Part shown: positions 35,096-41,985 of the stretch, piece after piece
Layout: the number at the start of each line of letters is the position of its first letter
How positions within the stretch are numbered: position 1 is the stretch's first letter
The notes under the pieces: generated by a model
What the model was told of the DNA's origin: nothing
The model's database searches: none
The model's input: only the letters and a program-made list of their open reading frames with translations
Program-made: the position numbers and the translations under genes
Source of the DNA: Candidatus Zixiibacteriota bacterium
GTDB taxonomy: Bacteria > Zixibacteria > MSB-5A5 > UM-FILTER-46-8
DNA length: 64,000 bases
Assembly (NCBI GenBank): GCA_026983835.1
Contig: JALSTH010000027.1
Span: forward strand, 10,433-74,432
Reading direction: 5' to 3'

Positions 35096-35245
35096 AACAC
35101 TAATCGATTCTGGTTCAAATAATGAGTTTTATGATAATATATCGATTAATTAATGTCAAGGTTAATGAATTATTGGGGAGATGATATTCGTAAGGAGGGT
35201 TAATCGGTCTAATTTTGGAAATAAAGGGAAGCGAACTCAAAACGG

Positions 35246-35845
35246 TTATCGTATAAATTCGGCAATGCTAAGTGAAGAGTAATGACGATTGATTCCTATC
35301 ACACCACCCCAAAAGAATTTATCTATATGCTCCGACAACAACCCTCTTATTTTTTTTTCAAAGAGTTGTTTTAGGCTGTTCGGCTGGCTGTCTCCAATTA
35401 TAATGACACCGGTAGAAGAATTCTCCTCTATGTGTGAAGCTAACTTATCGAGGTAATCTAAATATTCTTCTCTGACAATCACTAACTTATAATCGGGCTT
35501 AAAGTCGGGAGCTTTGTCCGGCTTAAGAACAATTGTTTTTAGGTTAAATAAGGTTAATTGAAGGTTTAACATTAAAATTTCAAGCGAATTAAAATAGGTG
35601 GAAAAAATATTCTCGGTTATTTCTTCCAACTTAAAGTGATTTTCATATTCGACGGAAACAGCTTTCCCGCCCTTAATGACAAATAAGAATTCCTTACCCC
35701 TATTATCAACCCCCAAAAGTTTATATTGTTGCTTATCGCCCTCGATAAATAGGGATTTATATCCGTTGCTATTAAGGTGTGCAACTATATTCGTAGCTAT
35801 CCTATTTTCATCGCCGTATAAATTATGCAAGAGAATCCGAATCAT
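35246..35845 (-). CDS. Hypothetical protein; N-terminus resembles a ParA/MinD fold with a destroyed Walker A
   Basis: 199 aa, 96 nt downstream of the ParA-like gene on the same strand. Residues 17-39 (ATNIVAHLNSNGYKSLFIEGDKQ) align without gaps to residues 19-41 of the neighbouring ParA (AVNLSACLSELGRRVLMIDLDPQ). The P-loop position reads YGDENRI. Confidence 0.55.
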   Translation of the reverse strand: MIRILLHNLYGDENRIATNIVAHLNSNGYKSLFIEGDKQQYKLLGVDNRGKEFLFVIKGGKAVSVEYENHFKLEEITENIFSTYFNSLEILMLNLQLTLFNLKTIVLKPDKAPDFKPDYKLVIVREEYLDYLDKLASHIEENSSTGVIIIGDSQPNSLKQLFEKKIRGLLSEHIDKFFWGGVIGINRHYSSLSIAEFIR

Positions 35846-35941
35846 CGGCTCTCTCCGATAAAATTATTTGTTTAAATCGCAGCTTGGAAGAAAACCTAAA
35901 GTAATTATATTTTAGAAAAAAAACATCCAGAGACTTGCTTA

Positions 35942-37012
35942 TCAGCTTATTGTAACTACGGAATTAAACCCGCCCAAATTATCATCCGCTTTGATAGGAT
36001 TATTTGGGTCGGGCAGCCATTTCCCATCGACTACGAATCGGTATTGGTATGTTCCGGGATCAAGGGGTATCATAGTTTCCCAGATATTAGAACCCTTCTT
36101 CTTCATAATTCCCTCGTTCGGAGACCAGTTATTAAAATCGCCCGCTACCAATACAGCGTTGGCTTTAGGGTCTTTATAGCGGAAAACTATTGCCCCATTG
36201 ACCAATTGGGGTTTTAAAAGAACTTTCTTTTCAACTGGGTATGACTGTTCTTCCTGTAATATAATTTCCGTAGCCAAGGCATTGTAATCCTTGTAAGCTA
36301 TGCTGTACCGATTATATTCGGATATCGGCGTTCCGAAACTCGCCGCTTCTTTTAATCTGACAGACATACGGATGGTCGTTGTCAACAGGTTATCACCGAA
36401 ATGCTCCTGAATTTCTTTAAGGATTTCACGCGAAAATCTGTTGCGCCCGTTGTAAATTGTTGCTAACGCCTGCACCCTTATTATATGGCCGGTCTTTTCT
36501 TCCTGAAGGCGGACCGTCTCCAGCAGTTTTCGTAAACCATGTAGGGAGAAGAAACTTGGTTCGACCGGGACGATGACTTCCGAAGAAGCATTTAACGAAT
36601 TAACGGTAAGTAGCCCTAACGATGGAGGGCAATCAATAATTATATAGTCGAAGGGAATTTGCAATTCCATTATCCTGCCGATAAGAATTCTTTCCTTACC
36701 CTTGAAATCGACTAACTCCTTATCCAAAAAATTTAATAATAGATTGGAAGGAGCGATAAACAGATTGTCGGAATATTGGATTAAAATATCGTTCCAATCG
36801 AATGAACCTGCTTTGGAGGGTGAAAAAATATCATAAACCGAGTGCCTAAGTTTTTCGGGTTGGTATGCGAATGATAAAGTGGCATGAGCTTGGGGGTCTA
36901 AATCAATCATCAATACTCTTCTGCCCAATTCGGATAAACAGGCACTAAGATTAACAGCGGTAGTGGTCTTACCGCACCCTCCTTTTTGATTGATAATTGA
37001 AAAAGTACGCAT
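35942..37012 (-). CDS. ParA/Soj-family ATPase fused to a C-terminal CBM48 / AMPK-beta glycogen-binding-like domain
   Basis: Deviant Walker A NQKGGCGKTT, DLDPQ and IIIDCPPSLG motifs. The C-terminal VLVAGDFNNWSPNEGIMKKKGSNIWETMIPLDPGTYQYRFVVDGKWLPDPNNP is the CBM48-type signature. Confidence 0.85.
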   Translation of the reverse strand: MRTFSIINQKGGCGKTTTAVNLSACLSELGRRVLMIDLDPQAHATLSFAYQPEKLRHSVYDIFSPSKAGSFDWNDILIQYSDNLFIAPSNLLLNFLDKELVDFKGKERILIGRIMELQIPFDYIIIDCPPSLGLLTVNSLNASSEVIVPVEPSFFSLHGLRKLLETVRLQEEKTGHIIRVQALATIYNGRNRFSREILKEIQEHFGDNLLTTTIRMSVRLKEAASFGTPISEYNRYSIAYKDYNALATEIILQEEQSYPVEKKVLLKPQLVNGAIVFRYKDPKANAVLVAGDFNNWSPNEGIMKKKGSNIWETMIPLDPGTYQYRFVVDGKWLPDPNNPIKADDNLGGFNSVVTIS

Positions 37013-37507
37013 AAAATCCTCCTGATTTTATTTAACAAGCAGATAATTACTCCACTCGCTTTTCCAAGATCTCCAATGTCCAATTGGAAAGGTTTTATTA
37101 TACCAAGCAAGCCAACTTTGAAATTGTAATTATCCTTCCCTGTTGTTCTACAAACAAAAAACCTACTTTAACAATAGAATATAATTATCCTGTTTGTTCT
37201 GTCAAGTAATAAATTTAAAAATACTCAAATTAAATTATAAGTTAAACTTATAACCTTAACAGGTATAATCGATTTTAGGATGTTAGGTTTTTCGTTAATT
37301 TTCTGTCGATTTTAAAAACTTCTGCCGAATCCCGTTTTGTATATTGAAAAAACTATTATATTACAGTTTTTCTCATAATCTGATTCAATAATAAATTGTG
37401 CGGATTGGATAAAATTTTTTTGATATCTTCCGTTATTTTTATCAACTGTTTTGCGATTTTGCCCTCCACGGATATCCTATGGCATTTTTAAGTATCTCTT
37501 TTTTTAT

Positions 37508-40188: not shown

Positions 40189-41985
40189 ATGAAAAGAATA
40201 CTTTTTATAATCGTATTTTTCCTCTTTCCTTTATTTTCGGTTTATGGTGATCCTATCCCCGTTTATGACAATGAACATATTTTGGCGCAAAATGCTGATG
40301 GAGCCGGAAGGGTTGTAGTAGTCGATTTGGACACCGATGGGGATATGGATTTTTTGGCTGCGCTTAAATATGAGAAGAAAGTGGTGTGGGGCGAGAACGA
40401 TGGTCTTCAAAATTTTATATCTCATATTATCGATAACAACTTTAGAGGAGCGACCAGCGTAAAAGCTGTCGATTTTGATGGGGATGGGGATTTGGATGTT
40501 TTTGGGGCGGCATATACTGCCAATGAAATAGCTTGGTGGGAAAATGACGGTTCTATGAATTTTACTAAGCACATAATTGGGGATAGCTTGCTTCATGCTT
40601 TTGATGTTTGTGTAAAGGATATCGACAGTGATGGAGATTTGGATGTGGTAGGGGCGGCGATAATGTCCGATTTAGTAGCTTGGTGGGAAAATGACGGGAA
40701 TCAAAATTTAACCGAACATATAATTACTAGTAATTTCGGAGGCGCAGGGAATGTGGATGCCGCCGATTTGGATGGCGATGGAGATATAGATATATTGGGA
40801 GCCGCCAAATATGCGGATAAGATGGCTTGGTGGGAGAATGACGGGAATCAGAACTTTATCGAGCATATAATCGATGGGTTTTACGATAATGCCAATTGTA
40901 TCCTTGCGGTGGATTTCGATAACGACGGCGATATGGATGTTATGGGGGCGGCAAAGTATGGGGATGAAATAACTTGGTGGGAGAACGATGGGAATCAAAA
41001 CTTTACCAAGCACACAATAGGCGATAATTTTGATGGTGCTTTTGAAGTTTATCCTGCCGATCTTGACTCTGATGGAGATCTTGATGCCGTGGCAACCGCC
41101 ATTTTTGCGGATGAGATAGCTTGGTGGGAAAACAGCGGGGATAATTTAACCTTTACCAAGCATCTTGTTGTGGAGAATTTCGATGCTGCACGCTCGGTAT
41201 ATCCCGCCGATATTGATGGGGATGGAGATATAGATTTAATGGGCGCCGCCCTCGATGACGATGAAATTGCCTGGTGGGAGAGCGATTTGTTTAATATCTA
41301 CTCGGATATAGATATGGCACCGGAAAGTGATCCTTTGATTGTAACGCCCGGAAATATTTTCAATTACACGGGCTCTTTGACCAATAAATCCGATCGACCG
41401 ATAACTTTCGATATTCTCGTAGGAGTGGAAACTCCTGAGGGTGTTTTTGATTCCTTGAAATTTTATACCGACATCTATCTGGAACCTGATAGTTCCACAA
41501 GCGCTTTTTTAACTCAATATGTTCCTGCTACCGCTCCGATCGGGACCTACGAATACATAGCCTATTCTATTGATTCGGATTTTTCCATTGTTTCTGATTC
41601 CGCTTCTTTTACATTGATACTCGATGCCGGAGATAGCCCACTGGGCGCAAGCCCTTATGGCTGGGATATCGAAGGTAAATGGGGAGCTTCTTATAATAAT
41701 AATGTGAGTGAAAATCAACCCGAAACTCCTGTAATTGTTTCCGCATATCCAAATCCATTCAATGCCAATACGGAATTTTCCTTTGATCTATGGGCTGATA
41801 GTAAGGTTTGCTTGATGATTTATGATCTGCTTGGTCGTAAAGTCGAAACTCTAATAAATGAGCGATTACCTGTCGGAATTCAGAGAATAAATTGGGATGC
41901 CTCTGAATTCCCGAGCGGCATTTATTTATATAAGCTCCAAGTCGATAATAATGTAAATGTTGGGAAGATAAGTTTGGTTAAATAA
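40189..41985 (+). CDS. Secreted seven-repeat FG-GAP/VCBS beta-propeller protein with a T9SS C-terminal sorting domain
   Basis: Signal peptide. Seven DxDGDGDxD ... AWWENDGNQNF units. The C-terminal YPNPFNANTEFSFDL ... IYDLLGRKV ... PSGIYLYKLQV is a type A Por/T9SS sorting signature. Confidence 0.85.
   Translation: MKRILFIIVFFLFPLFSVYGDPIPVYDNEHILAQNADGAGRVVVVDLDTDGDMDFLAALKYEKKVVWGENDGLQNFISHIIDNNFRGATSVKAVDFDGDGDLDVFGAAYTANEIAWWENDGSMNFTKHIIGDSLLHAFDVCVKDIDSDGDLDVVGAAIMSDLVAWWENDGNQNLTEHIITSNFGGAGNVDAADLDGDGDIDILGAAKYADKMAWWENDGNQNFIEHIIDGFYDNANCILAVDFDNDGDMDVMGAAKYGDEITWWENDGNQNFTKHTIGDNFDGAFEVYPADLDSDGDLDAVATAIFADEIAWWENSGDNLTFTKHLVVENFDAARSVYPADIDGDGDIDLMGAALDDDEIAWWESDLFNIYSDIDMAPESDPLIVTPGNIFNYTGSLTNKSDRPITFDILVGVETPEGVFDSLKFYTDIYLEPDSSTSAFLTQYVPATAPIGTYEYIAYSIDSDFSIVSDSASFTLILDAGDSPLGASPYGWDIEGKWGASYNNNVSENQPETPVIVSAYPNPFNANTEFSFDLWADSKVCLMIYDLLGRKVETLINERLPVGIQRINWDASEFPSGIYLYKLQVDNNVNVGKISLVK
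40285..41286 (+). repeat. Seven tandem coding repeats of about 147-150 nt (FG-GAP blades)
   Basis: The unit [V-x-x-x-D-[LFI]-D-x-D-G-D-[LMI]-D-[VFIA]-x-G-A-A ... [IV]-[AT]-W-W-E-N-D-G-x-x-N-[FL]-[TI]-[KE]-H] recurs seven times in the translation. Confidence 0.85.

Follow-up and report, generated by a model that had tools for sequence, protein, structure and literature searches.

A Soj-type ParA ATPase fused to a CBM48 module, and its divergent partner gene, in a Zixibacteria genome: a candidate module for positioning glycogen

The stretch of DNA analysed here (the window) comprises 64,000 nucleotides (nt) of contig JALSTH010000027.1 from a Candidatus Zixiibacteriota bacterium and carries, head-to-tail on its minus strand, two open reading frames (ORFs). 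The first (35942..37012) encodes a 356-residue protein in which a ParA-type ATPase is fused to a carbohydrate-binding module (CBM) of family 48, hereafter ParA-CBM48 or the fusion; the second (35246..35845) encodes a 199-residue protein termed ORF199. A first-pass annotation of the window had described the two frames in the same way, 96 nt apart on one strand, and had proposed that the pair might serve to position glycogen granules. The description was accurate, and the idea is largely supported at the level of sequence. The fusion had also been called an orphan, which it is not: both proteins belong to a widespread module.

The N-terminal part of the fusion matches Pfam AAA_31 over residues 1-174 (1.1e-49, 169 bits) and has the motifs NQKGGCGKTT, DLDPQ and IIIDCPPSLG, the first being a deviant Walker A box of the form KGGxxGK[ST] with the signature lysine of the ParA/Soj class. 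A phmmer search of the PDB retrieved Soj/ParA structures for this domain (E ~1e-38). The AlphaFold2 model of the fusion, built on an alignment of 24 family members, was confident (mean predicted local distance difference test (pLDDT) 85.7), with a ParA fold at residues 1-256; by Foldseek the ATPase domain matched Bacillus subtilis Soj with TMt 0.93 (E 2e-26, 39% identity) and the Soj proteins of Helicobacter pylori and Thermus thermophilus with TMt 0.87-0.91. Residue conservation was counted over 24 diverse members of the fusion family. K10, K15, T16, D37, D39 and D127 (Walker B) are invariant in all of them, D39 aligning to the position of D41 in H. pylori Soj (HpSoj). R190 is arginine in 23 of the 24 and may be the equivalent of B. 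subtilis Soj R189. Direct DNA contacts are made in HpSoj by K199 and K230 (PMC11229316); the corresponding residues of the fusion, R195 and R219, are basic in 20/24 and 23/24 members, and two other HpSoj lysines, K227 and K247, are replaced by M216 and Y236 and are not conserved. The ATPase has all the catalytic motifs of Soj proteins; we predict that it is active, and binding to nucleoid DNA is plausible. It scored 108 bits against NCBIfam ParA_partition, whose cut-off is 180 bits. A defence-system reading of the fusion was rejected, as PADLOC returned weak matches at the level of the P-loop only.

The ATPase is followed by a linker modelled with low confidence (residues ~257-268; pLDDT < 50 at 257-262), and in 23 of 24 family members an unconserved spacer of 23-30 residues separates the two domains; for the flexible linker proper we estimate a length of ~12-25 residues. 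Residues 274-355 match both Pfam AMPK1_CBM (PF16561; 1.4e-15, 57.7 bits, cut-off 26.8) and Pfam CBM_48 (PF02922; 1.7e-8, 35.1 bits, cut-off 22.4), the PDB phmmer search paired the C-terminus with the AMPK beta1/beta2 CBM (E 3e-11), and residues 269-355 were modelled as an all-beta block (pLDDT ~75-91). Foldseek, run on the whole chain, listed no CBM structures, since matches to the ATPase domain filled most of its list. Five residues of AMPK beta1, its cyclodextrin contacts, could be followed into the family: W100 (W296 of the fusion; W in 24/24 members), K126 (R325; R/K in 24/24), W133 (W332; W in 24/24), L146 (L346; hydrophobic in 22/24) and N150 (N350; N/D in 24/24). Thus Pfam, the PDB search and the structural model agree with the domain fusion as first proposed, with catalytic and sugar-contact residues intact. 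The module probably binds carbohydrate, and the protein as a whole would be an active, probably DNA-binding ParA with a tethered, probably carbohydrate-binding domain.

A scan of one genome per species found at least 573 genome stretches that encode the fusion; locus analyses were made on the best 80 of these, all from metagenome-assembled genomes. The best 80 span Myxococcota, Desulfobacterota, Omnitrophota, Planctomycetota, Acidobacteriota, Gemmatimonadota, Rokubacteria, Eisenbacteria, Krumholzibacteriota, Margulisiibacteriota, spirochaetes and others, so that the fusion is found in hundreds of mostly uncultivated genomes from more than ten phyla. Among the database matches listed, all 120 of 120 were fusions of about full length carrying PF16561, the nearest being from Zixibacteria metagenome-assembled genomes (67-74% identity). 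The names given to them are generic ('AAA family ATPase', 'Soj', 'chromosome partitioning protein'). A plasmid or phage origin of the fusion was rejected, as the best-ranked plasmid and phage matches end at residue 254-274 and cover the ATPase domain only, without the CBM part. Coverage of the fusion query reaches 80% in no phage record but in 24 of at least 5000 plasmid records, which were not inspected. The CBM alone matched four plasmid records, in none of them within a ParA gene.

The most informative feature of the module lies just downstream of the fusion, where the N-terminus of the next reading frame carries a conserved peptide, the tag, with the consensus K-LGRGL-x-D-[VI]-S-H-[LF]-F-L-S. 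ORF199 is without it, and the first-pass annotation had missed it. At 45 of the 80 loci a tag of at least 10 bits was found 0-300 nt downstream of the fusion, and about four further loci have one that falls just under 10 bits or is recognised by eye only; a variant, LPRDLxDVLHYFLPE, is found in Myxococcota. The first half of the tag (K-LGRGL) resembles the N-terminus of ParB, the segment that binds ParA and stimulates its ATPase. In H. pylori ParB this N-terminus reads MAKNKVLGRG; its Leu7 and Arg9 are conserved among ParB proteins, and Arg9 is required for ParA binding (PMC11229316). A PDB search with the tag peptide alone gave no match, the peptide being too short. No ParB was present among the downstream genes of the 80 fusion loci; parS was not searched for.

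Most partners continue after the tag into a MinD/ParA-like body. Five of 34 match Pfam CbiA and some match ParA or AAA_31, and a profile of 21 partner sequences aligned by hhalign to the fusion ATPase domain over 224 columns (probability 89.8%, E 1.8e-6). The P-loop is missing in 34 of 38 partners, and an intact KGxxGKT occurs in one only (L046). A word-indexed search with the partner alignment profile matched at least 22 proteins; in databases the partners are named 'hypothetical protein' or, automatically, 'FlhG'.

Other tagged proteins have different bodies. The tag precedes an HTH_17 + RodZ_C body in L062:1614-2969, an HTH-like protein (by eye) in L072:7077-7523 and an AAA_22 ATPase in L069:5536-6462; the presence of the same N-terminal tag on these unrelated bodies suggests that it is a portable module. 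In Planctomycetota it stands on long proteins without a Pfam match. Rokubacteria/Gemmatimonadales partners of 210-233 residues (L019:7088-7789, L023:7079-7711, L037:7180-7857) combine the tag with yet another body, also without a Pfam match, that contains 'CGEIDLL...DR..QLT(I/V)IDF', by eye like a PD-(D/E)xK nuclease-like motif. At 13 Omnitrophota loci (L042, L051, L056, L068, L070, L073, L074, L082 and others) no tagged partner follows the fusion; the next gene encodes instead a lysine-rich protein of ~130-150 residues (e.g., L068:7160-7564, L056:7698-8108), the end of which is a conserved domain, '..GxITHYFPHVxAAVIKL..', unmatched in Pfam. Tagged Omnitrophota proteins with the domain DUF4912 likewise begin with a lysine-rich stretch.

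ORF199 itself has no match in Pfam, NCBIfam or PADLOC, and a word-indexed homology search with it returned the query only. An exhaustive HMMER search of 1.84 billion representatives identified four relatives (24-34% identity); the partner at L004 is 32% identical (E 5e-28). Three of the four could be placed in genomic context, all on Zixibacteria-type contigs. In all four cases examined (the window, L004, L087 and L086) the family is encoded directly downstream of the fusion on the same strand, which agrees with the view of ORF199 as its partner. Sixteen positions are invariant across the five family members. The relatives P0122, P0123 and P0125 have 35-40 additional N-terminal residues with 'KKLGRGLxDVS', and ORF199 and P0124 begin just after that segment. 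No remnant of the tag was found in any frame of the 96-nt spacer, which has stop codons in the ORF199 frame.

The ORF199-family profile, which at five sequences (Neff 2.5) gives moderate evidence, aligned to the MinD-like partners with 90% probability under hhalign defaults (E 1.5e-6, 55 columns). The alignment was co-linear over 205 columns with mact 0.05 and reached 94% (E 1.8e-8) in global mode, covering 205-214 columns overall. In it, tag falls on tag and beta1 on beta1, the sequence YGDENRI stands at the P-loop position, with no G-x4-GK[ST] motif, the following helix falls on the 'NLA..LA..G' helix, EILMLNLQ on the Walker-B strand, and the beta-alpha-beta-alpha-beta segment of residues 119-183 on the 'VG.VVN...AE..F' segment of the partners. 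The placing of YGDENRI at the P-loop and the N-terminal register, both proposed earlier, therefore hold in the profile alignments. Not so the proposal that VIIIGDSQPNSL echoes Walker B: the alignments put it on a later ParA strand (residues 179-184), and VIIIGD was rejected as Walker B on alignment register, the position of that strand being held by EILMLNLQ. The ungapped match of ORF199 residues 17-39 to ParA residues 19-41 does hold nine identities in 23, as had been counted. Taken by itself it is not beyond chance, since 27 of 200 shuffles reached nine somewhere, though with the comparison restricted to both N-termini only one in 2000 did so. The four relatives of ORF199 keep just 3-6 of those 23 residues.

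On the grounds of synteny in four of four cases, tagged close relatives and the co-linear profile match, we assign ORF199 to the partner family as a very divergent member of the Zixibacteria lineage. Because its family aligns to the MinD-like partners, and the partners align to the whole ParA fold, ORF199 is probably ParA/MinD-like as well. The earlier description of it as a ParA-like protein with a dead Walker A thus holds transitively, through the partner profiles, but not by direct comparison.

Within Zixibacteria the fusion stays 67-74% identical while the partner is labile. The tag is present on the partner in L004, L087 and P0125 and missing from it in the window and L086; L001 and L005 have no partner. 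Downstream of the fusion in L005 come Mrr_cat, N6_N4_Mtase, a gene with a Macro domain and DarT (L005:7905-9009, L005:10571-11814), a stretch that, by its Pfam labels, looks like a restriction-modification and DarT/Macro toxin-antitoxin island.

Gene neighbourhoods in some phyla tie the fusion to alpha-glucan metabolism. A GH57 gene (PF03065, 2e-61) lies just upstream of it in ten Omnitrophota loci, a GH77 4-alpha-glucanotransferase gene abuts it in L075, and a phosphoglucomutase/phosphomannomutase (PGM/PMM) gene recurs beside it in eight Myxococcota loci. GH57, with eight members, was also the family that Pfam assigned most often among the 145 nearest neighbour ORFs. DUF4912 proteins form a further link: of 79 DUF4912 loci, 30 have a GH57 homologue and ten the fusion at a distance of up to 5 kb. 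Seven DUF4912 proteins, all of Omnitrophota or Planctomycetia, carry the tag, which is absent from those of Bacillota, Eisenbacteria and other phyla. In L094 the tagged DUF4912 protein is encoded away from the fusion. L018, from Omnitrophota, holds two tagged proteins in one operon-like run (L018:7128-11608) composed of the fusion, a tagged MinD-like partner, a 231-residue protein without assignment, Cu-oxidase_4 (YfiH-type) and a tagged protein in which DUF4912 is joined to a glucodextranase B domain (Glucodextran_B). These neighbourhoods give some support to the suggested link with alpha-glucans; granule positioning would still be a step beyond them.

Some side observations concern the same loci. 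Immediately upstream of the fusion, 16 Omnitrophota loci (L059:912-1487, L068:5414-5977 and 14 more) encode a conserved ~190-residue protein that has a predicted membrane segment but matches nothing in Pfam, and ahead of it stand GH57 and an Alginate_exp-type outer-membrane protein; the ~190-residue protein may be a further component of the module in this phylum. Untagged DUF4912 proteins of Eisenbacteria and related genomes (L123, L124, L126, L127, L130-L132, L135-L137) have an N-terminal 'K(T/S)VxELRxLAKxxGLxGxSxLRKxELVxLL', by eye a helix-extended-helix motif of Rho-N/SAP type, and most of these loci have GH57 within 5 kb.

In the window, the fusion and ORF199 look like a bicistronic unit (Table 1), as there is a promoter-like site ahead of the fusion, ribosome-binding sites at both genes, no terminator detected by a scan of the minus strand of the spacer between them, and a second promoter-like site before valS that likely marks the downstream boundary of the unit. 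The region 5' of the fusion (37013-37507) is unusually long (495 nt) and AT-rich, and contains the first promoter-like site; it gave no Rfam match and has no ORF of note. Rfam and tRNA scans of the whole window found tRNA-Pro only.

Table 1. Coordinates of the ParA-CBM48/ORF199 unit and its signals in the window
Feature	Position	Strand	Basis and remarks
Candidate sigma-70-like promoter of the two-gene unit	37178..37205	-	TTGACA-16-TATATT, 11/12 matches, ~165 nt 5' of fusion ATG; consensus scan, pattern match only
Shine-Dalgarno AGGAGG	37018..37023	-	5 nt ahead of fusion ATG (37012..37010); read from sequence
Soj-type ParA ATPase domain, fusion residues 1-256	36245..37012	-	Pfam, PDB phmmer, AlphaFold2, Foldseek, residue conservation
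Flexible linker, fusion residues ~257-268	36209..36244	-	Low pLDDT and variable linker alignment
CBM48/AMPK-beta-type module, residues 269-356 and stop codon	35942..36208	-	Pfam, PDB phmmer, AlphaFold2, conservation
Intergenic spacer, 96 nt, with GGAG ribosome-binding site for ORF199	35846..35941	-	Three-frame translation, terminator scan
ORF199, divergent tag-less partner-family member, probable MinD/ParA-like pseudo-ATPase	35246..35845	-	Relatives, synteny, hhalign
Promoter-like site between ORF199 and valS	35131..35159	-	TTGACA-17-TATCAT, 11/12 matches; pattern match only

The surroundings are ordinary chromosomal genes: priA, xseA, a lolE-like/FtsX-type permease, a short-chain dehydrogenase/reductase, M16 peptidases and secD (Pfam on immediate neighbours), and valS, recognised by its sequence. 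This accords with the earlier remark that there is neither plasmid nor phage context. It had likewise been noted that no parB is adjacent, and we agree: a ParB-like N-terminal peptide occurs in no real ORF of the window, and the immediate neighbours, to which the Pfam scan for ParB domains was confined, are housekeeping genes. Elsewhere in the window there are no other ParA/MinD genes and no tag, GH57, GH77, PGM or DUF4912. A 598-residue protein encoded at 40189-41985 on the plus strand has FG-GAP repeats, matched in six stretches, and at its C-terminus a sorting domain (Por_Secre_tail) of the type IX secretion system, which is consistent with an organism of the FCB group.

The module can be set against several known systems. 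With ParABS (T. thermophilus Soj, 1wcv; the H. pylori Soj-DNA-Spo0J peptide complex, 8jmj) it shares the ATPase fold, the catalytic motifs, basic residues at DNA-contact positions and, in the partner, the resemblance of K-LGRGL to the ParB N-terminal peptide. It differs in that no gene for an HTH/CTPase ParB accompanies the fusion, the partner is a MinD-like pseudo-ATPase or has another domain, the ATPase carries the additional CBM48, and the tag runs on into [DE][VI]SH[LF]FLS. McdA is a structural neighbour of the fusion (6non/6nop, Foldseek E ~1e-16 to 1e-17), and McdA/McdB resemble the module in having a ParA-type ATPase for non-DNA cargo (as proposed here) and a small, fast-evolving partner encoded next to it. 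McdB, however, both binds the cargo and activates McdA. In the present module the domain that presumably binds cargo is part of the ATPase, a ParA/MinD-like pseudo-enzyme stands in the place of McdB, and the proposed cargo is alpha-glucan, not a protein shell. The tag on partners elsewhere suggests that the partner would stimulate the ATPase; cargo binding appears to lie with the ATPase itself. We infer that the module works like McdAB or ParABS, but it is a member of neither: it has no ParB, its presumed cargo-binding domain is on the motor, and its partner is a pseudo-ATPase paralogue.

The CBM part resembles that of AMPK beta (1z0m/1z0n, 2f15) in sequence, in the W, K/R, W, L and N contacts and in its predicted all-beta fold, but it is bacterial and sits on a P-loop ATPase, not on a kinase scaffold. 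The partners align to MinD/FlhG/FleN over the whole fold, and share with them some Pfam CbiA/ParA matches and the automatic 'FlhG' names; they differ by the P-loop that most of them lack, the ParB-like tag and the absence of a flagellar or division context. BcsQ (with BcsR) is comparable as a ParA/MinD ATPase tied to polysaccharide and having a small partner, and the fusion has weak Pfam, NCBIfam and structural (6ybb) matches to it, but scores 74 bits against a 158-bit cut-off, has no bcs genes by it and carries a CBM48.

How might such a module work? In the mechanism that we propose, ATP-bound dimers of ParA-CBM48 would coat the nucleoid non-specifically, as Soj does, and the flexibly tethered CBM48 would hold glycogen particles or glycogen-bound enzymes. 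Tagged partners or clients (MinD-like pseudo-ATPases, DUF4912 proteins) would engage the ATPase through the ParB-like peptide, leading to hydrolysis and release. Through this cycle, stores of alpha-glucan or the enzymes that belong to them would be spread across the nucleoid and shared among daughter cells, much as McdAB does with carboxysomes. In the window genome, the tag-less ORF199 would have to act otherwise, perhaps by pairing with the ParA domain in a heterodimer, or be a decaying accessory, and activation might come from a tagged client encoded elsewhere, for which L094 provides a precedent. We judge the chances to be evenly balanced that the two-gene chromosomal module of the window positions glycogen granules or enzymes on the nucleoid, with ParA-CBM48 and tagged partners as its parts. 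The broader proposal, in which ParA-CBM48 is the hub of a widespread and previously unrecognised system for positioning glycogen granules, and a portable tag, in part a ParB mimic, recruits several kinds of client (MinD-like pseudo-ATPases, GH57-associated DUF4912, HTH/RodZ_C and AAA_22 proteins), is in our opinion possible but doubtful.

A number of observations count against glycogen positioning. Domain identities, residue conservation, synteny, the tag and the profile links were observed here; that the proteins bind glycogen and the nucleoid, that the tag interacts with ParA and that the module has a positioning role we infer from them, and in this the proposal has its weak side. Alpha-glucan genes are linked to the fusion in two phyla only, Omnitrophota (GH57/GH77, tagged DUF4912) and Myxococcota (PGM), where the linkage could be synteny inherited within each phylum, and the window has no alpha-glucan gene. 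Nor does the window contain a tag in any place (best E 0.45), ORF199 included. In L001 and L005, both among the closest Zixibacteria relatives, the fusion has no partner gene beside it, so that the co-conservation of the two genes extends to the window, L004, L087 and L086 but not to these; with ORF199 untagged and L001 and L005 lacking a partner, the partner is dispensable or replaced in this lineage. Direct similarity between ORF199 and ParA is insignificant: BLASTP of ORF199 against the fusion found nothing, and the two family profiles matched with 0.5% probability. Modelling, which had been suggested for both proteins, was confident for the fusion and poor for ORF199 (pLDDT 53 on a five-sequence alignment), whose fold is thus unconfirmed; Foldseek with this model gave no match at E<=0.001, the top TMq (0.32) being to FlhG. 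The second half of the tag ([DE][VI]SH[LF]FLS), its best-conserved part, is specific to the family and has no counterpart in ParB, and the position of HpSoj F52, which contacts ParB Arg9, is aromatic in just three of 24 fusion proteins, so that docking of the tag on the fusion may differ from that of ParB on HpSoj. Finally, in the classical diffusion ratchet the cargo carries the activator, and a cargo-binding domain on the ATPase itself would not fit that scheme.

Four other explanations were weighed. The fusion could be a glycogen sensor or regulator, with an AMPK-like CBM48 coupling the state of the stores to a Soj-type output such as segregation, replication initiation or choice of the division site; on binding glycogen it would sequester the ATPase or set it free. 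In favour of this are the regulatory roles that Soj proteins have, an ATPase domain whose nearest match is chromosomal Soj, a CBM of AMPK-beta subtype (it scores higher with AMPK1_CBM than with CBM_48) and the housekeeping context of the window, with no cargo genes nearby. A dedicated family of tagged partners and tagged DUF4912 proteins next to GH57 point, on the other hand, to a cargo/client system, and neither ParB nor DnaA nor a division gene recurs in the neighbourhoods of the fusion; we hold this explanation to be unlikely.

Similarly improbable, we think, is a BcsQ-like scaffold for glucan processing or polysaccharide export, in which the ATPase would give enzymes or an apparatus for envelope polysaccharide their place in the cell and the CBM would hold a nascent glucan chain and not granules. 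The fusion does match Pfam CBP_BcsQ (3.2e-14) and NCBIfam BcsQ (1.2e-20, under its cut-off), Omnitrophota loci combine an Alginate_exp outer-membrane protein and a small membrane protein with GH57 and the fusion, and the tagged clients include enzyme-associated proteins (DUF4912 with the glucodextranase B domain). Yet the BcsQ scores are far under those for Soj/ParA, the Soj DNA-contact positions are retained, the Alginate_exp neighbour is limited to one phylum, and no synthase or export genes recur across phyla.

A slim chance remains that the pairing is vestigial in this genome, ORF199 being in decay or repurposed while the fusion operates alone or with a chromosomal ParB or another tagged protein. 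ORF199 has lost the tag, its family has just four detectable relatives at 24-34% identity, tagged, untagged and absent partners are all found within Zixibacteria beside a well-conserved fusion, and a tagged DUF4912 protein can sit away from the fusion, as in L094. Against decay speak the intact frame of 199 codons, which is preceded by a good ribosome-binding site but by no terminator, the 16 invariant positions over five family members, and the second untagged member, P0124, which is also kept behind the fusion. Very unlikely, at last, is a purely protein-binding role for the CBM48-fold module, e.g., in docking the partner: E-set/CBM48-like folds are reused for protein contacts, as at the CBM-kinase interface of AMPK beta, and most phyla have no glycogen gene near the fusion, but the conservation of all five sugar-contact positions across phyla, with both stacking tryptophans in 24 of 24 members, would be hard to account for without a carbohydrate ligand.

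Bacteria generally rely on ParA/MinD ATPases to position large objects (chromosomes, plasmids, carboxysomes, chemoreceptor arrays, flagella, the divisome); to our knowledge, no such system has been assigned to glycogen. Our literature search found no paper on ParA-CBM48, on the tagged partner family or on a ParA-type glycogen system, and nothing relevant on DUF4912; most subscription journals were outside the search, which leaves absence unproven. If glycogen positioning by ParA-CBM48 is borne out, it would add a new class of cargo to the ParA/MinD systems. The design would be unusual as well: the motor would carry the domain that binds the cargo, its partner would be a paralogous pseudo-ATPase, and different clients would have a ParB-like tag in common. 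The module would offer a test of how far the logic of the diffusion ratchet still applies to an ATPase that binds its cargo directly, and would give a first functional handle on DUF4912. Since the module is frequent in phyla for which metagenomes are almost the only source of knowledge, it could inform us on how these organisms manage their carbon stores; should ParA-CBM48 indeed be a hub for several clients, glycogen would be a store that many uncultivated phyla organise in space and partition actively.

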